The translations under genes were made by a program, and so were the position numbers. Shown here one piece after another: positions 6,908 through 61,732 of a stretch of 64,000 nt of DNA. The DNA comes from a virus. Its lineage: Duplodnaviria; Heunggongvirae; Uroviricota; Caudoviricetes. Below the pieces are notes generated by a model, which was not told where the DNA came from, ran no database searches, and saw nothing but the letters and a program-made list of their open reading frames with translations. Positions within the stretch are counted from its first letter, which is position 1; each line of letters opens with the position of its first letter. The stretch is taken from the IMG/VR virus record IMGVR_UViG_3300028031_000001, positions 1-64,000 of that record; one strand, given 5' to 3'.

Positions 6908-9232
6908 ATGTCGAATCAGATGACAACGTATCAAGAATATATTCATATGTCCCGGTACGCAAGATGGATAGATGATAAGGGTAGAAGAGAAACATGGGAA
7001 GAAACGGTAGATAGATATTGCGACTTTTTTATCAACAGGGTTAAGGGTAAGTCGGCTATCACTGCGGCAAAGATTGATACGGAATTAAGAAATGCCATCA
7101 AGGATATGCAAGTAATGCCATCTATGCGCTGTATGATGTCAGCAGGCCCAGCACTAGAGAAATCTAATGTTGCTGGATATAACTGCTCAGCTATCGCGAT
7201 AGATCATATACGATCTTTTGACGAGATTCTTTATATTTTAATGTGCGGTACTGGCGTAGGTTTTTCAGTAGAAAGACAGTTTATTGTAAAATTACCTGAA
7301 GTTGCGGAAGATTTTCACAAAACAGACACAGTTATTCAAGTTCCGGATAGCAAAATAGGTTGGGCGAAATCCTTTAAAGAGTTAATTTCTCTACTGTATA
7401 ATGGCCAAATTCCAAAATGGGATATGTCCAAAGTTCGAGCAGAGGGCGAAGTTCTTAAAACATTTGGTGGTAGGGCATCCGGCCCCGCACCACTAAATGA
7501 TTTATTTGATTTCTCCGTAGCTTTGTTTTTAAGCGCCAAAGGGCGAAAATTAACATCGGTAGAGTGTCATGACTTAGTATGTAAAGTGGCGGAGATCGTA
7601 GTCGTGGGCGGCGTAAGGCGATCCGCGCTAATATCACTATCTAATCTTAGTGATGACCGTATGAGAGCCGCTAAAACAGGCCAATGGTGGATAGACAACC
7701 CTCAACGCGCACTAGCTAATAACTCGGCAGTTTATACGGATAAGCCAAACTTTGAGACGTTTATGAGTGAGTGGATAAGTATGTATGAATCGAAGGCAGG
7801 AGAGCGTGGAATATTTTCTAGAAAAGCGTCTAAAATACAAGCTGGAAAGAATGATCGTCGAAATTCGGATCACGAATTTTTAACAAATCCATGTTGCTTC
7901 GTTGGAAATATGAAACTCCTAACCGATGAAGGTTATAAAACTTTCGGAGAATTGGCGATGCACGAGGCTGTACAGATAGTAAACTGTAACGGCGATGTTA
8001 GCGAAGGTAAGGTTTGGAAGGTCGGAACAAAAGATGTAGTTACCATATCTTTTCCTGAAATTCTAAAGAAAAGACCTATTATATGTACCCCCGATCATAT
8101 CTTTATGTTGTCGGATGGTAGGGAGTGTAGAGCGGACGATTTAAAAGGTAGAACTCTTAAAAGTTTTGGTAGATTTGTCTGGTCACTTCCAATTATCGTT
8201 GCAGATGTGCAAAAGAGTAAAGCACAGCGGGACGTATATGACTTCACAGAACCCAGAACTCACTGGGGAGTGGTAGAGGGGGTCGTAGTTCACAACTCTG
8301 AAATCATTTTACGCCCACAACAATTTTGTAACCTTAGTGAGGTTGTTGTACGTAATGGAGATAGTCTAGATACTCTCAAAGAGAAGGTAAGGCAAGCAAC
8401 CATATTAGGTACGATTCAATCTACATTGACGGACTTTAAATATATACGCAAAATTTGGGAAAAAAATACCGAAGAAGAGCGCTTATTGGGAGTTAGTTTA
8501 ACCGGTATATATGATCATAATTTGCTAGGTGGAAAAACAAAAACTCTAGAAGGGAAAACGCTTCCGCAAGTTTTGGAGATTTTGAAACAAATAGCTATAG
8601 ACACAAATAAAGAATGTGCCGATAAACTTGGTATACCAGAAAGTACAGCGATAACGTGTGTCAAGCCTAGCGGAACTGTTAGCCAATTGGTAGATTCTGC
8701 ATCTGGCATCCACGCAAGGTTTGCGGAGTATTATATACGCAGAGTTAGAAGTGATAAGAAAGACCCTATCACACAATTTATGATTGATAAGGGGTTTCCT
8801 TATGAAGATGAAGTTACTAACGAATCTACGGTCGTATTTTCGTTTCCACAAAGTGCCCCTGCCGGCATGACATACACAAGCGAAGTATCAGCTACAGATC
8901 AGCTTAAACTGTGGGAGACTTACCAACGTTATTGGTGTGAGCACAAACCAAGCATTACCGTATACTACTCTGATGATGAATTTTTAGGAGTAGGACAATG
9001 GGTTTGGGATAATTTGGATGATATCAGCGGCATTTCATTTTTGCCAAGAGCCGACCACGTATACCGACAGCCACCTTATGAAGAAATTGACAAGGCTGAA
9101 TTTATGAAACTTCAGTCGGAAATGCCGGTGCTTGGTGGTTGGGGTATGTTATCAACATACGAATCTTCAGATATGACCACAGCTAGTCAGGAATTATCTT
9201 GTAGCAGCGCGGAGGGTTGTGATGTCATCTAA
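6908..9232 (+). CDS. Ribonucleotide reductase large subunit, likely class II (NrdJ-like), interrupted by a mini-intein
   Basis: Active-site motif NPC|SEI is split by an insertion. The C-terminus is Cys-rich (CSSAEGC). No NrdB partner gene is seen in the window. Confidence 0.8.
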   Translation: MSNQMTTYQEYIHMSRYARWIDDKGRRETWEETVDRYCDFFINRVKGKSAITAAKIDTELRNAIKDMQVMPSMRCMMSAGPALEKSNVAGYNCSAIAIDHIRSFDEILYILMCGTGVGFSVERQFIVKLPEVAEDFHKTDTVIQVPDSKIGWAKSFKELISLLYNGQIPKWDMSKVRAEGEVLKTFGGRASGPAPLNDLFDFSVALFLSAKGRKLTSVECHDLVCKVAEIVVVGGVRRSALISLSNLSDDRMRAAKTGQWWIDNPQRALANNSAVYTDKPNFETFMSEWISMYESKAGERGIFSRKASKIQAGKNDRRNSDHEFLTNPCCFVGNMKLLTDEGYKTFGELAMHEAVQIVNCNGDVSEGKVWKVGTKDVVTISFPEILKKRPIICTPDHIFMLSDGRECRADDLKGRTLKSFGRFVWSLPIIVADVQKSKAQRDVYDFTEPRTHWGVVEGVVVHNSEIILRPQQFCNLSEVVVRNGDSLDTLKEKVRQATILGTIQSTLTDFKYIRKIWEKNTEEERLLGVSLTGIYDHNLLGGKTKTLEGKTLPQVLEILKQIAIDTNKECADKLGIPESTAITCVKPSGTVSQLVDSASGIHARFAEYYIRRVRSDKKDPITQFMIDKGFPYEDEVTNESTVVFSFPQSAPAGMTYTSEVSATDQLKLWETYQRYWCEHKPSITVYYSDDEFLGVGQWVWDNLDDISGISFLPRADHVYRQPPYEEIDKAEFMKLQSEMPVLGGWGMLSTYESSDMTTASQELSCSSAEGCDVI
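7895..8296 (+). other. Mini-intein (134 aa) in the RNR active-site motif
   Basis: Starts with Cys (CFVGNMKLLTDEGY, block A). Has a TPDH block B and block F/G VYDFTEP...VVVHN, followed by the +1 Ser. Removing it restores NPCSEI. There is no room for a homing-endonuclease domain. Confidence 0.75.
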
Positions 9233-9434
9233 AAAACGACCAACATTTGAAAGGCTTCCAGAATCTCAAAAGGTTCAAAAACAAACCATTCTTAAAATGG
9301 GCATTCCTTACACAAGCGATTTAACCCAAAGGATGATGTGTATCTTAATTAATGGCGCAAATAAAAGGGAATGGCGGGATAAACTTAAAAATTCCGGATT
9401 ATGGAAAAAAGGAGTAAAAAGAAATGGACAATAG
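9219..9434 (+). CDS. Hypothetical small basic protein
   Basis: 71-aa ORF that overlaps the RNR stop codon. Confidence 0.35.
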   Translation: MMSSKKRPTFERLPESQKVQKQTILKMGIPYTSDLTQRMMCILINGANKREWRDKLKNSGLWKKGVKRNGQ

Positions 9435-9801
9435 CAAAACTATAGTTTATTATGCAAGAAATGAAGGGTTATATTTTACATATCAGGAAGATCGTGACAT
9501 AGAAACGATAGAGCAATTAGGTTTTGAAGTGGCTGATTTTCCAAAAAAATATGAAATACATAAAGAGAAGTCTAAGGTTGATGGGGATGTGATGGCATTA
9601 TTTCATAAGGTAATTGAGGAGTGTTATATTTTATTTTTCCGCAGGCTGATAAATGGTAAAATTAGCGCTGGAGTTTTTAGCGAAATAAAGTTCGCTCAGA
9701 AATTAGGTATACCGGTTTTGGAGTTACCAACAATTATGCCGTCTGACGGCTTAAGCGTTGAAGAGACAAGATGTGTATTGCGATACCTTGGAGAGAGATA
9801 A
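9424..9801 (+). CDS. Nucleoside 2-deoxyribosyltransferase-like / DUF4406-like Rossmann protein
   Basis: GKISAGVFSEIKFAQKLGIPVLEL resembles the catalytic Glu motif (SxGxxxExGxAxAxGKPV) of the deoxyribosyltransferase/Rcl family. Confidence 0.4.
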   Translation: MDNSKTIVYYARNEGLYFTYQEDRDIETIEQLGFEVADFPKKYEIHKEKSKVDGDVMALFHKVIEECYILFFRRLINGKISAGVFSEIKFAQKLGIPVLELPTIMPSDGLSVEETRCVLRYLGER

Positions 9802-10265
9802 TGATAAGTCCAATTGATAAATTTATTACAGAAAGTAATGCGATTGAGGGTATTTTTGGAAACCCAACACACGCAGAAAGAGATGAGCTTATGAGATTTA
9901 TCGATCTGGATGAGCTTACAGTAATAGATGTGACAAAATTTGTTAGAGTTTATCAACCAGACGCGAAGTTAAGGAAAACTGTAGGTTTAAACGTTCGGGT
10001 TGGAAGTTATCTTCCGCCAGAAGGTGGCCCAAGGGTTTTAGATAATCTTAAATCAATATTACACTCCGCAAATTTAGAAGAGGACTCAGGGCCGAATTCT
10101 GCGTATTATATACATCATAGATACGAAAGCCTACACCCATATACAGATGGTAATGGCCGCTCAGGAAGGGCGATATGGCTTTGGCAAATGGGACAAAGAG
10201 GTTTTGGGTTACCATTTCTACAATCATTTTATTATCAAGCGCTAGACGCTGGACACAGGGGTTAG
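9771..10265 (+). CDS. Fic/Doc family protein (putative AMPylase)
   Basis: Canonical Fic motif HPYTDGNGRSGR (HPFx[DE]GNGR). Confidence 0.8.
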   Translation: MCIAIPWREIMISPIDKFITESNAIEGIFGNPTHAERDELMRFIDLDELTVIDVTKFVRVYQPDAKLRKTVGLNVRVGSYLPPEGGPRVLDNLKSILHSANLEEDSGPNSAYYIHHRYESLHPYTDGNGRSGRAIWLWQMGQRGFGLPFLQSFYYQALDAGHRG

Positions 10266-10267
10266 GT

Positions 10268-10483
10268 ATGAATAAGATAATAGTTAATATATTTTTTGCG
10301 TTATTTTTTATAATATTTTTTGTAGGGGTAGGGCTTCCATTTCTATTTTCTGCAAAGAGTATGATTGCGGTGGTATTGGGTTTTACTCTTATACCATTTA
10401 TAATTATAGTGGTGATATGGTTTTTTAAACGTATTTTTAAATTGATAAATGAGGAGATGGAAAATGTTGAAATTGATAAATAG
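10268..10483 (+). CDS. Small two-helix membrane protein, a possible NfeD-like partner of the SPFH protein
   Basis: An internal ATG (MNKIIVNIFF...) with an AGG RBS sits inside tracked ORF 10175..10483. It has two hydrophobic helices, and its end overlaps the SPFH gene start. Confidence 0.45.
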   Translation: MNKIIVNIFFALFFIIFFVGVGLPFLFSAKSMIAVVLGFTLIPFIIIVVIWFFKRIFKLINEEMENVEIDK

Positions 10484-11342
10484 TTTTAAATTAGTAGGGG
10501 TTTTGCTATTTGCATTCGCACTGGCAGGATGTGATAAAGTACCGGCGGGTAACGTAGGCGTAAAAGTCTTCTTACTAGGTGGCGAAAAGGGTGTTGATCA
10601 TGTAGAGTTAGGTGTAGGGCGTTACTGGATTGGCTTTAATGAAGACCTGTTTATCTTTCCAACATTTACACAGAATTATAACTGGACGCAAAGTCGATCT
10701 GAAGGATCAGAAAATGACGAGTCTATCACGTTTCAAACTGTAGAAGGATTAAGTTTAGGCGCTGATGTGGGTATTAGCTATGCAATCAATCCCGAAATGG
10801 TTAGCAGTGTATTTGTTAAGTATAGACGTGGGATAAACGAAATCACGGATACGTTTCTAAGGAATATGGTACGTGACGCGTTTGTTGCAGAAGCTTCTAC
10901 CCTTGGCGTTGAAGCGGTATATGGAACTGGCAAGATTGCCCTTATAACGGCTGTAGAAGATCGTGTACGTAGTCAAGTGTCGGATATAGGAATTAATATT
11001 GAACGTATCTATTTTATTGGTGAACTTCGATTGCCTCCTGCCGTAACTGCCGCAATTAATGCTAAAATTGAGGCAACTCAGAAATCGCAGACACGCAGAA
11101 ATGAAGTAGCGATGGCTAAAGCTGAGGCTGACAAGGTGATTGAACATGCTCGTGGTGCTGCGGAATCTGTTTTGCTTGCAGCTTCAGCAGAAGCGACTGC
11201 TATCAATCTTAAGGGCGAAGCATTGCGTAAAAACCCTGAGATTCTTCAACTTAACGCGCTTGAAAAGTGGGATGGTACTTTGCCTAAGTTCTTAGGTGGA
11301 CAAGAGCCAATGCCGTTTATCGATCTAGCGGTAGCAAACTAA
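10449..11342 (+). CDS. SPFH/band-7 (prohibitin/HflC-like) lipoprotein
   Basis: Signal peptide with lipobox LAGC. SPFH-like core with an Ala/Glu-rich coiled coil (AEADKVIEHARGAAESV). Confidence 0.7.
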   Translation: MRRWKMLKLINSFKLVGVLLFAFALAGCDKVPAGNVGVKVFLLGGEKGVDHVELGVGRYWIGFNEDLFIFPTFTQNYNWTQSRSEGSENDESITFQTVEGLSLGADVGISYAINPEMVSSVFVKYRRGINEITDTFLRNMVRDAFVAEASTLGVEAVYGTGKIALITAVEDRVRSQVSDIGINIERIYFIGELRLPPAVTAAINAKIEATQKSQTRRNEVAMAKAEADKVIEHARGAAESVLLAASAEATAINLKGEALRKNPEILQLNALEKWDGTLPKFLGGQEPMPFIDLAVAN

Positions 11343-11403: not shown

Positions 11404-12243
11404 GTGGAATTAATGAACAATGTTGATCACCAATATTTACAACATATGCGCAGACTATTAGACGTTGGAGCTGAATCTGAGAATAGAACAGACACAAAGA
11501 CCTTAAGTATATTCGGACATCAAATGAGGTTCGATCTACGAAAAGGATTCCCCATTGTTACTACTAAGAAAGTATTTATGAAGGGAGTTATTCACGAACT
11601 TATCTGGTTTTTATCAGGCTCTACAAACATTAAGTACCTAGTAGAAAATGATGTTCATATATGGGATGAATGGGCAGACGATAATGGTGAATTAGGCCCG
11701 GTCTATGGCTCACAATGGAGAGATTGGAAATCTGAGCGTGGTGCAAGTATAGACCAAATCCGCGAATTGGAAAACGATTTATTATTTAAACCAAATTCTA
11801 GACGAATGATAGTAACTGCATGGAACCCCGGAGTACTGCATAAACAGGCTCTACCGCCATGTCATTTGTTATTTCAATTTGGAACAGAGTTGATTCCAAA
11901 TGCAGGTGGTATGAGATATCTTAACTGCCATTTGTACCAACGATCAGCAGACTGGTTCTTAGGCGTACCCTTTAACATATCAAGCTATGCTCTATTAATG
12001 ATGATTATAGCAAGGCGTGTAGGTATGATACCTAAGACGTTCGTACATTCTTTCGGTGATACACATCTATACGTCAATCACAAAATACAGGCTGATATTC
12101 AATTAGGAAGAAAGGGATATGTCTTACCAGAAATGATTATCAATCCGGAGTCTCAAATTAAGATAGACAACTACAAGTACTCGGATTTCGAATTGATAAA
12201 CTACAAACATGATTCAGGATTAAAAGGTGAGGTAGCAGTATGA
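11404..12243 (+). CDS. thyA: Thymidylate synthase
   Basis: Full-length match to ThyA hallmarks (MRFDLRKGFPIVTTKK, PPCHLLFQF with the catalytic Cys, DTHLY). Confidence 0.9.
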   Translation: MELMNNVDHQYLQHMRRLLDVGAESENRTDTKTLSIFGHQMRFDLRKGFPIVTTKKVFMKGVIHELIWFLSGSTNIKYLVENDVHIWDEWADDNGELGPVYGSQWRDWKSERGASIDQIRELENDLLFKPNSRRMIVTAWNPGVLHKQALPPCHLLFQFGTELIPNAGGMRYLNCHLYQRSADWFLGVPFNISSYALLMMIIARRVGMIPKTFVHSFGDTHLYVNHKIQADIQLGRKGYVLPEMIINPESQIKIDNYKYSDFELINYKHDSGLKGEVAV

Positions 12244-38567: not shown

Positions 38568-38879
38568 TTATATGTCATACCCTCTTAAATCGGAAGTAAA
38601 GTAGTTACTAGCTATTGTACGCAACTCATAACTAACTTCATGAGGTTTAAGTTCAACTATCTCGCCTAGCAAATTTATAAAAACTATATGTTGGTTTGCT
38701 TTATCTATCCAATAACATTGTTGTTTTTGTTTTGGCTTGCTGTAGCCATTATACACTGGAGTGCCTGATTTTGTACGCCTAAGATACTTGTGTTTATATT
38801 CGTCTTCAGACAAATTATTCAAAATATCCTTAAGGGTCTTTCGATCTTTGTATTCCTTAAGCCACATTCGTTTTTTCAC
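38568..38879 (-). CDS. Hypothetical protein
   Basis: 103-aa ORF coupled to the downstream NAMPT-like gene. Confidence 0.4.
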   Translation of the reverse strand: MKKRMWLKEYKDRKTLKDILNNLSEDEYKHKYLRRTKSGTPVYNGYSKPKQKQQCYWIDKANQHIVFINLLGEIVELKPHEVSYELRTIASNYFTSDLRGYDI

Positions 38880-40327
38880 GACCCATTTAGACGTTCTCTG
38901 ATTTCGGACAGCGTGGTTATATTTTTTATTTCACTATCTAGGAAAACAGTCTGTAAAAGACCCCCCTGTTCTTCTTCCGAGGTACATTGATCTTTGATAG
39001 ACCCGTCATGCTCGACGCGAAGCAAACCCTTTGCGGATCGCTTAAGTCCATTGTCGGTCTTTGGGTCTTTGAAGATTTCGCGATGCTCACCATCAACAAT
39101 ACCATAAGTCGCTTTGACCGCAAATCCGTGCGTGTCCCGAGTCACCATTTGGTACGTAAAGCTGCCTACTCCAAATACAATATTGCTAGATGCAAAACCA
39201 GCGGCTTCTAAATTACTTAAAATCTCATCAGCACGGTCGTAAGTGATGCTGTCTCCATATATCAAACCGATATGTGGATTAAGAACTTTGTAACCCTGTT
39301 CATTGTCAGTTCCACCAAATGTATCCCAAAGACATTGAATAGTTCCCTGAGCAATAGCGGAATCATCCGATTCGTAGTCGCCACAAATTATTTTAACCGG
39401 GTCTCCCGAGTCTGGCCGAATTACCACCTTTCCATCACGAGCTAATATTTTATCCTTAAGTTGCGGTAAGAATTCTGTAATAACTTTCCAGTAGTCCCAT
39501 GAGTCAGATACGATAGATACAATCCCTTTGGGATATACATCCTCTATCAATTCTCTAAAGGTTTCAATCTCGTTATCTTTTCCTCTTAGACACATAACGG
39601 AATGCTCTGTAGCGGGAACTGACATACCTATGATTTCGCTATCGCTGTCGGCTCCGTAGTAATTCTCTAGGAAATCAATTGCGGGAATGGTATCCGTACC
39701 TAAGAAACTTAACAAATGCCCGGCACCGCTCATAGACGCGGCCTCAACACCCGGTAAACCCCTCATAGAGAAGTCGTGTGCCTGAAAGTCTACACCGTCG
39801 GTTGTTCCGGTTGTTTGTATTGCATATTTATCAAGTAGTTGGCGATATTTATCCGCAGTACTTGCGGAAGTCATGGGTAACCACAAACTTGTTGATAATA
39901 AAGTCTCTAAGTAATTAACCAACCAAGAAAAGTCCGCGTGGGTGTTGGTTATAGTAAGCATTGGAACTCTATGGTCGCATCGAGTGCCTTCCGGAAGAGC
40001 TTTGATTAGTAGGGGAAGATATCCCAAATCCCACAAAGCCGCGACATGGCTGACGCCTACAGAGTCTTCACCAAGTGCGTTATCAAGGCGGCGTTTGTAT
40101 CGGCTAACAACTTTAGCTTTATTAACGCTAAAAAAATCTTCGTCAAACTGTTTCATTAAGTATTCTAAAATAAAATACTGAATGCCAAATACGACCGTGT
40201 AATCCATTCCGGAATAAGGCCCGCCGCGAGGCGTTAAATTTGAATAAATTTTAGTTGTCTTAGCCGGATACTGCTGAATATGTCCAACCTTATAAAAATC
40301 GGTTAAATGTATAGGGTGTAATTTCAT
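38876..40327 (-). CDS. Nicotinamide phosphoribosyltransferase-like protein (NadV/NAMPT family; an alternative reading is Namat of NARP1)
   Basis: 483 aa. NAMPT-family features run across the whole length (the Tyr-rich N-terminus FYKVGH, GTDT, SDSWDYW, GVGSF). Confidence 0.75.
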   Translation of the reverse strand: MKLHPIHLTDFYKVGHIQQYPAKTTKIYSNLTPRGGPYSGMDYTVVFGIQYFILEYLMKQFDEDFFSVNKAKVVSRYKRRLDNALGEDSVGVSHVAALWDLGYLPLLIKALPEGTRCDHRVPMLTITNTHADFSWLVNYLETLLSTSLWLPMTSASTADKYRQLLDKYAIQTTGTTDGVDFQAHDFSMRGLPGVEAASMSGAGHLLSFLGTDTIPAIDFLENYYGADSDSEIIGMSVPATEHSVMCLRGKDNEIETFRELIEDVYPKGIVSIVSDSWDYWKVITEFLPQLKDKILARDGKVVIRPDSGDPVKIICGDYESDDSAIAQGTIQCLWDTFGGTDNEQGYKVLNPHIGLIYGDSITYDRADEILSNLEAAGFASSNIVFGVGSFTYQMVTRDTHGFAVKATYGIVDGEHREIFKDPKTDNGLKRSAKGLLRVEHDGSIKDQCTSEEEQGGLLQTVFLDSEIKNITTLSEIRERLNGS

Positions 40328-41085
40328 AATACTCTTCCTTTTGGTGTGTAAATTTCGTCTATCAATCCATCAAAAACTTTAAAACCTTTTGTGAAAAAAC
40401 CATGCGATACACAAAGTATTATTTTTTTCGCACCATGCTTGCGCAACTTCTTTGCTATCTCTATGAAGGTTCTTCCTCCATCACAGATATCATCCACTAT
40501 AACGCAGGTTTTGTCAAGAACTTTTTCATAATCATGTACTATGGTTTTTAAAATTTTGCCCGTTGCCAACTGCCTAACTTTGGAGCAGTGGACTAGCCCG
40601 CCAATATTTTCAGAATGTACTTCTGCAAGTTTCTCCGACTTGTGAATGGCTCCAGCGTCTGGAGCAACAATAATCCACCCCTTTTCTAGACACGATAATG
40701 CTCCGAAAAAATTTGCGAACTGCGGAATTGATATGCAGTTATTAATTAATGCTGAAGTAACTGGCGAATGGGGGTCGAGAATTTGTACCCTTGAAAATTC
40801 GAGATTATTTACCAGATCAGTAAAAACTTTGATGGACAAAGACTCGCCCTTAGTCATTACGCGGTCTTGCCTACTAAAGGGCACATAATGCATTATCAAC
40901 AAACCAAGACTCAAATTGCAGCGTTTGATGGCGTCACAAACCAATAGAAGGTCTATAATACTGTCAGAACCATCGAACTCAAATCTAACATTAATAATTT
41001 CGCTCGTAATATTACTAACTTTTACATTCCTCTCTCCACATGGAAAGGAAAAAAATCTTACGTCCGCACCTGTTAATCTTATCAT
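40324..41085 (-). CDS. Ribose-phosphate pyrophosphokinase-like protein (Prs family; an alternative reading is ADP-ribose pyrophosphate synthetase Adps of NARP1)
   Basis: PRPP-binding motif VIVDDICDGGRTF. At 253 aa it is shorter than canonical Prs of about 315 aa. The gene is translationally coupled to the NAMPT-like gene. Confidence 0.65.
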   Translation of the reverse strand: MIRLTGADVRFFSFPCGERNVKVSNITSEIINVRFEFDGSDSIIDLLLVCDAIKRCNLSLGLLIMHYVPFSRQDRVMTKGESLSIKVFTDLVNNLEFSRVQILDPHSPVTSALINNCISIPQFANFFGALSCLEKGWIIVAPDAGAIHKSEKLAEVHSENIGGLVHCSKVRQLATGKILKTIVHDYEKVLDKTCVIVDDICDGGRTFIEIAKKLRKHGAKKIILCVSHGFFTKGFKVFDGLIDEIYTPKGRVL

Positions 41086-56277: not shown

Positions 56278-56922
56278 ATGCCTGATTCATCAAAAGTAAA
56301 ACCTAAAGACCGAAGTAAAATTAGTAAGCGTCGGCTTACCCCTGCCGAATGGAAAAAAGCTAAAGCTATGCGGGCGGAACAAGGATTTACCATACAAGAA
56401 ATAGCGGAATCGTTTAATGTTTCTCACCAAGCGGTACAATCTAGATTAGCCAAAGACGGCGTAAAGCAAGGAGTGACGAACAAAGAAATTAAAAATAAAA
56501 AAGAGTTGATAATCGCTAATGACGCTCAAGAAATGTTAGTCAAAGGGTCGGACATAACCGTATTAGCCCTTCAAGGGGTTGAATGGTTACAAAAGAGGTC
56601 TCTGAAGCTCTTCACAGAGGCTGTAACGGAGGGAAGGCCATTAGTCACAATAGGGGACGATCAGAAGGTAATACGTACCATGCTGAACAATATGAAGCTA
56701 TGTCACGACGTTTCAGATATGATTATTCAAAATTACAAACAATTTGATGAGAAAGATGTTCCGGTATTAATTTTGAAATCTATGACCAAAGAGGATGAGC
56801 AGGCCGTTCGAGAAGCAGGCGACGAAGTTGGTGATTTGATGGGAGACTCAGGAACACCAAAAACGAATCCAGAATCCAGTTTTGACGATTCTGTAGTTAT
56901 TATTGGTGGTGAGAACGAATAA
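56278..56922 (+). CDS. Putative terminase small subunit
   Basis: N-terminal HTH (FTIQEIAESFNVSHQAVQSRL). It sits immediately upstream of, and overlaps, the large terminase gene. Confidence 0.45.
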   Translation: MPDSSKVKPKDRSKISKRRLTPAEWKKAKAMRAEQGFTIQEIAESFNVSHQAVQSRLAKDGVKQGVTNKEIKNKKELIIANDAQEMLVKGSDITVLALQGVEWLQKRSLKLFTEAVTEGRPLVTIGDDQKVIRTMLNNMKLCHDVSDMIIQNYKQFDEKDVPVLILKSMTKEDEQAVREAGDEVGDLMGDSGTPKTNPESSFDDSVVIIGGENE

Positions 56923-58196
56923 TGGCTGGAATAGCAGCTAAGGCCGTTGGTTCCAATATCAGTACAATAATGCTGCATAGGGGACAAACAGAGGTTCATA
57001 ATTCGAACGCAAGATTTAAAGTTGTTGTAGCTGGGCGTCGTTGGGGCAAATCGATGCTGGCTTTAATCAGTCTGATTAAATGGGCTCAAATACCGGGCTC
57101 AAGGGTTTGGTACGTAGCACCATCATATAGATTAGCAAAGCAAATTATTTGGGACGAATTAAAGGCCGCAGTTCCAAGGAATTGGGTTAAAAAAATTCAC
57201 GAAACAGAACTTTCAATTAGATTAGTAAATGGATCAATAATCGAATGCAAAGGTGCTGATGACCCAAACGGATTACTTGGTGTTGGACTAAACTACGTTA
57301 TCTTGGATGAGTTTCAAGATATGAAAGAAAATGTTTGGAAAAGGTCTTTACGACCAACCTTAGCGAGAGATCGCGGACACGCCATGTTCATCGGAACACC
57401 TCGTGGGTATAACCTGCTTTACGACGTACATATGTTGGGACAAGACCCAGATAATAAAATGTGGGATAGTTGGGTTTTTCCAACCGTGACATCCCCATTT
57501 ATTCCCTCTGAAGAAATTGAACAAGCACGGTCTGATATGGATATAAAAACATTCAGACAGGAGTTTGAAGCAAGCTTTGAAAATATGTCAGGACGGGTAT
57601 ATTACCAATTTGATAGAAATATTCATACCGGAAAATTTCCATTTAATCCAGACCTTCCGATTTGGGTAGGGCAAGATTTTAATATCGACCCTATGGCCAC
57701 TGCAATTATGCAACCTCAGCGAGACGGATCAATACATGTTGTTGATGAGATTTATAAACACGGATCAAATACTTTGGAAATATGTGATATTCTAGAACAA
57801 AGATATTACAAGTATATGGGAAAAAATAACGGACAGGTTTGTATATATCCAGACCCAGCAGGTACTGCAAGACAACATGCCCGAGGAGAATCAGACCTTG
57901 ATATATTTAGAGAGCGTGGATTTAATTACATAAAGTTTAGGCGGAAGCATCCTAGAATATCTGATAGAGTTAACGCGGTTAATCGTATGCTCATGGACGC
58001 GAATGGTCAGGTTCGTATGCACGTTGATTCAAAATGCAAAAACGTAATAAAATCTTTCGAGCAAGTTTTATACAAAGAGGGAACTCCGGATATTGATAAA
58101 CGTCCTAGCGTCGAGCACATTACAGACGCTTTGGGTTATCCAATTGAGCTAGAATATCCAACAAGGAAGATCGTCATTGCTGGGCGCTCACTGTAA
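56922..58196 (+). CDS. Terminase large subunit
   Basis: Terminase-type Walker A (VVVAGRRWGKS) and Walker B (LDEF), a C-terminal nuclease-like region, then the portal gene. Confidence 0.8.
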   Translation: MAGIAAKAVGSNISTIMLHRGQTEVHNSNARFKVVVAGRRWGKSMLALISLIKWAQIPGSRVWYVAPSYRLAKQIIWDELKAAVPRNWVKKIHETELSIRLVNGSIIECKGADDPNGLLGVGLNYVILDEFQDMKENVWKRSLRPTLARDRGHAMFIGTPRGYNLLYDVHMLGQDPDNKMWDSWVFPTVTSPFIPSEEIEQARSDMDIKTFRQEFEASFENMSGRVYYQFDRNIHTGKFPFNPDLPIWVGQDFNIDPMATAIMQPQRDGSIHVVDEIYKHGSNTLEICDILEQRYYKYMGKNNGQVCIYPDPAGTARQHARGESDLDIFRERGFNYIKFRRKHPRISDRVNAVNRMLMDANGQVRMHVDSKCKNVIKSFEQVLYKEGTPDIDKRPSVEHITDALGYPIELEYPTRKIVIAGRSL

Positions 58197-60826: not shown

Positions 60827-61732
60827 ATGGCACTTTTAAAAACCGAAGCTGACAAGCTGTCGAACAACGACCTTGTAGCTGGAGTCATCGAGGAAATCAT
60901 TGAGAAAGATGGTCTTTTCGCCCTATTACCCTTCAGTAAGACGAATGGTAAAGCATACGTTTACAACCGAGAAGCGACAAACTCTCAGGCGATATTCATT
61001 GATCCTAATGATGTAATCACCGAAGAAGCGTCAACCTTCACATCAGTTACTACTCAGCTACGAATTATCGCTGGCGACGTAGATGTTGATAAGTTCCTAG
61101 AAGGAACTGAAAGTGATACAAACAATCAGAAAGCAATTCAAATCGCTGCGAAAGCAAAAGGTATTGCTCGAACATTTAGAAGTGCCATCATCAATGGCGA
61201 TAATGGCGTAAACGCTAAACAGTTTGATGGTCTGAACGCGATTGTTACAGCCACAGGAAACGAAGTTATTTCCGCAGTTAACGGCGCATCTCTAACTCTA
61301 GCTATGCTAGACGAGCTTGCAGACGCAGTGCCTAACGGCCCCGACTTTTACATGATGCGCTCTGGAACATTTCGTGCGCTGAAAGTATTGTGGAGACTGG
61401 CTGGTGGTAATACAGGTGGATTGCTGCAAATTGATAACTTCGGTTTGTCAGTTCCCGCACATGATGGTATACCAATCATCATAAACGATTACATTTCTGG
61501 AGCAGAAACTCAAGGTACTAACGGCGCTACAGCACGTATCTACGCAGTTCGAGCAAATGAAGTAGATGGCTTCCACGGCCTTTATGGCGGGGAAAATGCC
61601 GGGTTCGTTGTTGAAGATATCGGAACGGTTCAAAATAAAGACGCGACTCGTACTCGTGTGAAGTGGTATTGTGGTGTGGCTCTTAAGTCAACACAATCAG
61701 CAGCTTCATTAAACGGTATTACGAACGTTTAA
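60827..61732 (+). CDS. Major capsid protein
   Basis: 301 aa with a strong GGAG RBS, positioned after the scaffold gene. Confidence 0.55.
   Translation: MALLKTEADKLSNNDLVAGVIEEIIEKDGLFALLPFSKTNGKAYVYNREATNSQAIFIDPNDVITEEASTFTSVTTQLRIIAGDVDVDKFLEGTESDTNNQKAIQIAAKAKGIARTFRSAIINGDNGVNAKQFDGLNAIVTATGNEVISAVNGASLTLAMLDELADAVPNGPDFYMMRSGTFRALKVLWRLAGGNTGGLLQIDNFGLSVPAHDGIPIIINDYISGAETQGTNGATARIYAVRANEVDGFHGLYGGENAGFVVEDIGTVQNKDATRTRVKWYCGVALKSTQSAASLNGITNV

Follow-up and report, generated by a model that had tools for sequence, protein, structure and literature searches.

A probable class 1 mini-intein beside the radical cysteine of a phage class II ribonucleotide reductase

The locus, the insert and the host reductase

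The window analysed here is a 64-kb stretch of phage DNA (IMG/VR record IMGVR_UViG_3300028031_000001, positions 1 to 64,000), in which a first-pass annotation had reported, at positions 7895-8296, a mini-intein splitting the active-site motif of a ribonucleotide reductase (RNR) between NPC and SEI (hereafter NPC/SEI, the slash marking the point of insertion). The gene that carries the insert is an open reading frame (ORF) of 774 amino acid residues, free of frameshifts and stops, which we annotate as a 640-residue reductase resembling ribonucleoside-triphosphate reductase (RTPR) plus a 134-residue intein. A metagenomic contig of ~108.6 kb carries an identical protein, P0001. The parts of the gene are as follows.

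6908-9232, plus strand: precursor gene for a class II (RTPR-like) RNR with its predicted intein, 774 residues, 87.35 kDa, stop codon included
6908-7894, plus strand: N-extein, 329 residues, ending in ...TNPC, the last codon (tgt, 7892-7894) encoding the predicted thiyl-radical Cys
7895-8296, plus strand: predicted class 1 mini-intein, Cys1 to Asn134, 134 residues, 15.11 kDa, residues 330-463 of the protein
8297-9232, plus strand: C-extein, 311 residues and the stop codon, starting with Ser+1 (tct, 8297-8299) followed by Glu

Translation of 7895-8296 reads CFVGNMKLLTDEGY...IICTPDH...DVYDFTEPRTHWGVVEGVVVHN, with ...FLTNPC on its left flank and SEIILRP on its right. In nucleotides, the junctions read aat cca tgt / tgc ttc ... 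cac aac / tct gaa, and the boundaries fall on codons, Cys-1 (tgt, 7892-7894) being followed by Cys1 (tgc, 7895-7897) at the upstream junction and Asn134 (aac, 8294-8296) by Ser+1 (tct, 8297-8299) at the downstream one. The coordinates and length originally assigned to the insert are exact, and the homology, profile and structure results given below put the observation well outside chance.

A homologue search over about 5.8 billion proteins returned three size classes, and the best 120 homologues were parsed. TNPCSEIILR(P/S) is contiguous in 87 of these 120, which are intein-less and 621-671 residues long; at 640 residues, the excised window protein falls in the middle of that range. About 30 of the 120 carry an insert exactly at NPC/.../SEI, most of these inserts measuring 309-331 residues and containing a LAGLIDADG domain (PF14528), and a few being small (127 residues in P0006 and P0065, 129 in P0020 and 147 in P0011). 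Homologues from cultured phages (Lentibacter phage ICBM2, Roseobacter CRP phages, Puniceispirillum phage HMO-2011, Sinorhizobium phiM6 and Pseudomonas NP1-like phages) align with the precursor in two pieces that together cover 82-88% of the query (82-85% in most cases); since the insert amounts to 17% of the query, these phage genes lack it. No match was obtained when the gene was compared by megablast with 50,697 phage records, pointing to a phage without a close cultured relative. The GC content of the intein (0.38-0.45) does not contrast with that of the remainder of the gene (0.34-0.47), and base composition thus does not point to a recent foreign origin; the flanks have no notable direct or inverted repeats, the only repeat being a 13-nt chance pair.

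Excision of the insert raised the score of the host protein against TIGR02505 (adenosylcobalamin-dependent ribonucleoside-triphosphate reductase) from 282.8 bits, distributed over three fragments, to 307.7 bits (E 1.5e-91); as this score is under the equivalog cut-off of the family, the host is referred to as RTPR-like and not as an equivalog. The B12-dependent RNR insertion domain PF21995 was detected at 33.2 bits, above its cut-off of 27. The class II, B12-dependent nature that had been proposed for the enzyme is thus supported by both families and by the best PDB match, while of the two class profiles only PF21995 was matched above its threshold. When the spliced extein was searched against PDB sequences, the sole match was the RTPR of L. 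leichmannii (1L1L, E 6.9e-40), and the alignment ran unbroken across the splice junction, tnpcseiilrpqqfcnl pairing with TNPCGEISLANGEPCNL, so that removal of the insert does restore NPCSEI as had been predicted. In the numbering of the 1L1L chain, the Asn of the motif corresponds to Asn406, residue -1 to Cys408, residue +2 to Glu410 and the downstream Cys to Cys419; we take Cys408 of RTPR to be the thiyl-radical cysteine. The C-extein accordingly has a Glu at +2 that equates with Glu410, the Cys of FCNL that equates with Cys419, and a C-terminal Cys pair (CSSAEGC). RTPR is the closest known relative of the host protein, and the intein divides the RNR finger loop directly after the predicted radical Cys. 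No family of the small RNR subunit (NrdB) was matched by the annotated genes that flank the RNR gene out to ~10 kb in each direction, or by ten large ORFs elsewhere in the window, which agrees with the first inspection of the sequence and fits a class II enzyme.

Splicing residues, fold and predicted splicing pathway

The intein blocks recognised in the first-pass annotation are all present. Their invariant positions, given below, were determined from an alignment of the window intein with 24 relatives.

7895-7936, plus strand: block A, CFVGNMKLLTDEGY, in which Cys1 is the predicted nucleophile of the first acyl shift and C1, F2, M6, L8, T10 and G13 are invariant
8087-8098, plus strand: block B, TPDH, Thr65-His68, in which T65, D67 and H68 are invariant
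8231-8296, plus strand: blocks F/G, DVYDFTEPRTHWGVVEGVVVHN, in which D116, F117, E119, P120, W124, G125, H133 and N134 are invariant

The invariant columns include every residue used in class 1 splicing; position +1 is a Ser, and the penultimate His133, the terminal Asn134 and the block F Asp116 are all in place. The NCBIfam model of the intein N-terminal splicing region, TIGR01445, matched at 30.7 bits (E 4.8e-7), its cut-off being 24.5. When a profile made from 25 relatives was run against the six frames of the window, it picked out the RNR ORF alone (E 1e-60; next best 0.056), and thus no second intein of the same family was found in the window.

An AlphaFold2 model of the intein, built on the alignment of its relatives, had a mean pLDDT of 94.3 and a pTM of 0.87. 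Comparison of this model with the PDB by Foldseek yielded 58 matches at E <= 0.001, and all 50 of the matches listed were inteins, BIL domains or hedgehog autoprocessing (HINT) domains, with inteins in the lead and mini-inteins first among them. The top matches were Ssp DnaB (1MI8, E 2.4e-8), Npu DnaE (4KL5, TM 0.80), Npu DnaB, the Mtu RecA splicing domain and gp41-1; NrdJ-1 (8UBS) was also matched, and hedgehog and BIL domains ranked lower. The insert is thus predicted by the model to have a HINT fold.

From these findings we conclude with high confidence that the insert is a genuine class 1 HINT mini-intein that has lost its endonuclease and that lies within the finger loop of the class II RTPR-like RNR of this phage, between the thiyl-radical Cys and the Ser located just before the catalytic Glu. 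Several observations weigh against this conclusion. Pfam PF14890 reached 32.6 bits (E 8.6e-8), below its gathering threshold of 35.8, so that of the two intein families only TIGR01445 was passed; the spliced host, at 307.7 bits, did not reach the TIGR02505 equivalog cut-off of 340.05; a PDB sequence search with the intein alone gave weak matches (E 0.4-1.3); the closest intein relatives are only ~59% identical, leaving no near-identical intein-free or endonuclease-containing allele by which events could be dated; and splicing competence is deduced from residue conservation. The missed profile cut-offs are explained in part by the insert itself, and the question raised by the weak PDB sequence matches was settled by the fold comparison.

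Splicing would proceed by the canonical class 1 pathway. The 87-kDa precursor would be translated with its active-site loop split by a 15-kDa domain, and should for that reason be inactive. Cys1 would initiate an N-to-S acyl shift on the Cys(-1)-Cys1 bond (Cys329-Cys330 of the precursor), the hydroxyl of Ser+1 would attack the thioester in a trans-esterification to give a branched ester, and Asn134, aided by His133, would cyclise to a succinimide with release of the intein. A final O-to-N shift would leave a Cys-Ser peptide bond in a 72-kDa enzyme with a native TNPCSEI loop. The calculated masses are 87.35 kDa for the precursor, 72.26 kDa for the spliced enzyme and 15.11 kDa for the intein.

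The intein could in addition serve as a conditional post-translational switch, responding for instance to redox state through Cys(-1)/Cys1 or through C31, C64 and C78, and so delaying the activation of RNR until the state of the infected cell is suitable. The insertion point directly adjoins the redox-active radical Cys, which creates a vicinal Cys-Cys pair at the N-terminal junction, and four cysteines are present in the intein; the Cys of CTPDH in NrdJ-1 (Cys76, equivalent to C64 of the window intein) has been mutated to limit disulfide formation; conditional splicing is documented for other inteins, RadA among them (PMC4513877); and it has been argued that inteins cluster for functional reasons at the active sites of replication and dNTP enzymes (PMC4760082). 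That clustering is, however, explained equally well by selection against imprecise loss together with the conservation of homing targets (PMC2814812). C64, moreover, is not invariant, the consensus CTPDH being replaced in some relatives by V or A at this position, many close phage homologues do without any intein, and none of the sequence data require a switch. We therefore regard such a role as unlikely.

It is very unlikely that the element is a splicing-dead relic, the RNR being either non-functional or tolerant of an insertion that is never excised. The loss of its endonuclease shows the element to be in decay, the case for splicing competence is drawn from sequence, and since the window covers 64 kb of the ~108.6-kb contig, another RNR may lie in the remainder. 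Against this, the residues for all four splicing steps are intact and match the invariant columns of the lineage, the ORF has neither frameshift nor stop codon, and the exteins are of full length, with the catalytic Asn, Cys and Glu, the Cys419 equivalent and the C-terminal Cys pair preserved. Moreover, on general knowledge of the RNR barrel (1L1L), a 15-kDa domain in the finger loop beside the radical Cys would not be tolerated unexcised. That the insert is no intein, but a domain insertion peculiar to this RNR lineage or a BIL or other Hint domain without ligation of its flanks, is scarcely credible. In favour of this reading, BIL domains (6y75, 2lwy) occur among the structural matches, since they too have the HINT fold. 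Against it, the insert interrupts a motif that is strictly conserved in an essential enzyme, is followed by a +1 nucleophile and ends in His-Asn, in contrast to typical BILs; it also passes the TIGR01445 cut-off, and has relatives that carry LAGLIDADG homing endonucleases and sit at classic RNR intein sites. Our preferred interpretation thus remains that of a class 1 mini-intein which would splice itself out of the RNR precursor.

Endonuclease loss and position of the insertion site

The position at which an endonuclease domain would be expected is occupied in the window intein by the following element.

8162-8200, plus strand: short linker KSFGRFVWSLPIIV, approximately residues 90-102, putative endonuclease-deletion scar, marked by an alignment gap relative to P0002, P0003, P0005 and P0014

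Exactly at this position, relatives carry a LAGLIDADG homing endonuclease of roughly 180-200 residues, both motifs of which, LAGF(M/I)LGDG... and GL(F/Y)SANG, are found in the full-length relatives; P0011 retains a fragment of the domain (FFAGF). A family profile scan of the 134-residue intein found no match to PF14528 or to any other endonuclease, and residues 91-100 form the sole low-confidence stretch of the AlphaFold2 model (pLDDT 68). The presence of LAGLIDADG in relatives at the linker site thus identifies the window element as an endonuclease-deleted mini-intein, in keeping with the initial view that it was too small to carry a homing endonuclease. The differing linkers of P0006, P0065, P0020 and the window intein suggest that these elements may have undergone separate deletions. 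No free-standing endonuclease was found next to the gene among the neighbouring ORFs, which encode a RuvC-like resolvase, a Fic-domain protein and unknowns. With its own endonuclease gone and none free-standing in the adjacent ORFs, the element should now be inherited vertically; it should be immobile on its own and at a late stage of the homing cycle.

The wider lineage was delineated by an exhaustive HMMER search of the 134-residue intein over 1.84 billion cluster representatives, which matched 263 clusters at E <= 1e-3, 170 of them at E <= 1e-10. Among the best 150 relatives, ~119 are inserted at NP/C-x-E, the classical site, with G as x in 73 cases, S in 21 and A in 19, and with the radical Cys itself as residue +1; 6 are inserted at NPC/S-E and 4 at NPC/C-E. 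In this lineage, a Ser at +1 is therefore less usual than a Cys, as had been remarked when the insert was first described. When all proteins collected are considered, 122 inteins occupy the classical site and 30 occupy NPC/S; of these, 46 and 7, respectively, are mini-inteins. The only relatives of the intein itself in cultured phages are the 'intein-containing RnR' genes of Nodularia phages, which have a LAGLIDADG domain and junctions reading GSNP/CFTGDMRLL...THWGVVEGRIAHN/CGEILL.

Inteins at NP/C-x-E, such as that of Nodularia phage vB_NspS-kac65v162 (MK605244), belong to the same lineage as the window intein, with which they have in common the pattern CFTGDM(K/R)LLT...(C)T(P/A)DH...(Y/F)DF(T/S)E...THWGVVEG...HN; over the splicing domain, the Nodularia intein is 40% and those of P0013, P0019 and P0021 are 48-52% identical to it. 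They differ in being inserted one codon upstream, with the catalytic Cys at +1, and in that most of them, the Nodularia inteins included, keep LAGLIDADG, whereas the window intein lies at NPC/S, is followed by Ser+1 and has no endonuclease.

Within one lineage, insertion around the radical Cys therefore takes place in three registers, namely NP/C-x-E (the majority), NPC/S-E and NPC/C-E. They are seen in P0013, P0019, P0021, P0011, P0134, P0154, P0201 and P0248 and at locus L002:1531-4980. When 37 splicing domains were placed in a neighbour-joining tree, the result was star-like and support at the nodes in question did not exceed 30%, which is too poor to give the number or direction of one-codon shifts; nearest-neighbour and mean-identity statistics were used instead. 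Mean identity was 49.5% among the NPC/S inteins and 43.1% between NPC/S and NP/C inteins, the latter value being on a level with the NP/C background (42.3%). The nearest neighbour was an NP/C intein for all five NPC/C-E inteins, and three NP/C inteins of the phage RTPR-like clade had NPC/S nearest neighbours. The displaced registers thus fail to separate into clean clades, and this suggests that one-codon shifts, accompanied by a change of the +1 nucleophile, have happened repeatedly. We tentatively propose, doubt having slightly the upper hand, that the window intein branched off, displaced by one codon, from the most widespread RNR intein lineage, and that inteins slide repeatedly between adjacent codons wherever a nucleophile is available. 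Displacement to NPC/S would be viable only because this RNR clade has a Ser (or Cys) after the radical Cys. If true, repeated sliding would depart from the rule that non-allelic inteins are unrelated; in a limited search of the literature, we found no description of intein sliding between adjacent codons.

Further intein sites were seen in the phage RTPR-like clade, at VVGGVRR/C...VVVHN/SALISL in P0020 and at FGGRA/C...FVSHN/SGPDPL in P0013, each of these proteins carrying two inteins; the FGGRA insert of P0013 appears to contain an HNH-type endonuclease.

Genome context and comparison with known systems

A replication and repair module lies upstream of and around the RNR gene, with a gp32-like SSB, a 5'-3' exonuclease, RecA, an SbcCD-like pair and a RuvC-like resolvase. 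Other genes of the window are the following.

9219-9434, plus strand: ORF with a GTG start and no family match, overlapping the last 14 nt of the RNR gene
9771-10265, plus strand: small protein with a weak Fic-domain match, between RNR and thymidylate synthase
10449-11342, plus strand: Band_7/SPFH-family membrane protein, between RNR and thymidylate synthase
11404-12243: thymidylate synthase
38876-41085, minus strand: nicotinamide/nicotinate phosphoribosyltransferase (NAMPT; PF04095, PF18127) and an adjacent PRPP-synthetase-like gene
56922-58196: large terminase
60827-61732: major capsid protein

The 14-nt overlap between RNR and the ORF at 9219-9434 suggests tight translational coupling, and the NAMPT and PRPP-synthetase-like genes look like a phage-encoded NAD salvage pair. 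On the same contig, just upstream of the window start (L001:1-1630), lies a replicative polymerase of the Pol III alpha type (PHP, DNA_pol3_alpha, HHH_6), the product of which also matches the uracil-DNA glycosylase family PF03167.

The analysis supports both the observation first made on this DNA and its interpretation, the element belonging, without standing out, to a large and familiar class and occupying an insertion site that had been reported before: one more intein beside the radical Cys of an RNR, in a marine-type phage, which leaves the current understanding of inteins and RNRs unchanged. Together with its relatives, it provides a data set on changes of insertion register and of the +1 nucleophile.

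Compared to the RTPR of L. leichmannii (1L1L), the host protein shares the TNPC(G/S)EI..CNL motif, and both PF21995 and TIGR02505 match; it differs in having a Ser where RTPR has a Gly after the radical Cys, and in its length of 640 as against 739 residues. The structurally characterised mini-inteins Ssp DnaB (1MI8), Npu DnaE (4KL5), Npu DnaB (4O1R) and Mtu RecA (3IFJ) have in common with the window intein the HINT fold, a size of ~130-150 residues and the class 1 catalytic residues, and match its model at Foldseek E-values of 2e-8 to 1e-7 and TM-scores of 0.74-0.80. They are only 18-22% identical to it, and reside in other host proteins at other insertion sites.

With 211 recorded inteins, RNR ranks second among bacterial proteins in intein number (PMC4760082). 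Dassa et al. 2009 reported that contiguous RNR inteins most often sit immediately before the thiyl-radical Cys, and that the split inteins NrdJ-1 and NrdJ-2, found in phage-like loci of GOS, are shifted by one residue towards the C-terminus, to a site not described until then (PMC2677866). The native exteins of NrdJ-1 are NPC and SEI, its Ser+1 is obligate, and with those exteins it splices in vitro with a half-life of 26 s (2026 study, PMC13123727). NPC/SEI is therefore a known site, that of NrdJ-1 (PMC2677866, PMC13123727). A limited literature search returned nothing specific on contiguous NrdJ inteins at NPC/SEI, which does not by itself prove novelty. At least three further intein families besides NrdJ-1 were observed at this site, 23-27% identical to the window intein (P0034, P0062, P0093, P0037 and P0078). 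Their C-termini are atypical, reading ...VASN or ...VTGN without the penultimate His, and ...VTGQ in P0078, where a terminal Gln replaces the Asn.

NrdJ-1 (GOS metagenome, Lake Gatun; fused structure 8UBS) resembles the window intein in its Cys1, its CTPDH block B, its terminal VHN, its Ser+1, its HINT fold and its probable phage origin. It differs in being split into halves of 105 and 40 residues, which are encoded by two ORFs with a free-standing endonuclease gene between them, whereas the window intein occupies a contiguous ORF and had no endonuclease match in the nearby ORFs. The two are 22% identical by BLASTP (E 3e-5) and 28% identical over aligned columns; the NrdJ-1 sequence was taken from a machine-read supplement and the last residues of its N-fragment were reconciled by eye, the comparison being independent of these residues. 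NrdJ-1 fell outside the lineage of the window intein in the neighbour-joining tree, and had no close relative among 270 collected proteins. On the strength of the low identity and the lack of a close relative in this collection, we rejected the possibility that NrdJ-1 is the split form of the window lineage, and the two are separate lineages at one site. NrdJ-1 is among the fastest and most extein-tolerant split inteins known, and the window intein offers a compact, uninterrupted element with Ser+1 at that junction; it and its ~50 natural mini relatives are thus candidates to screen as protein-engineering parts.

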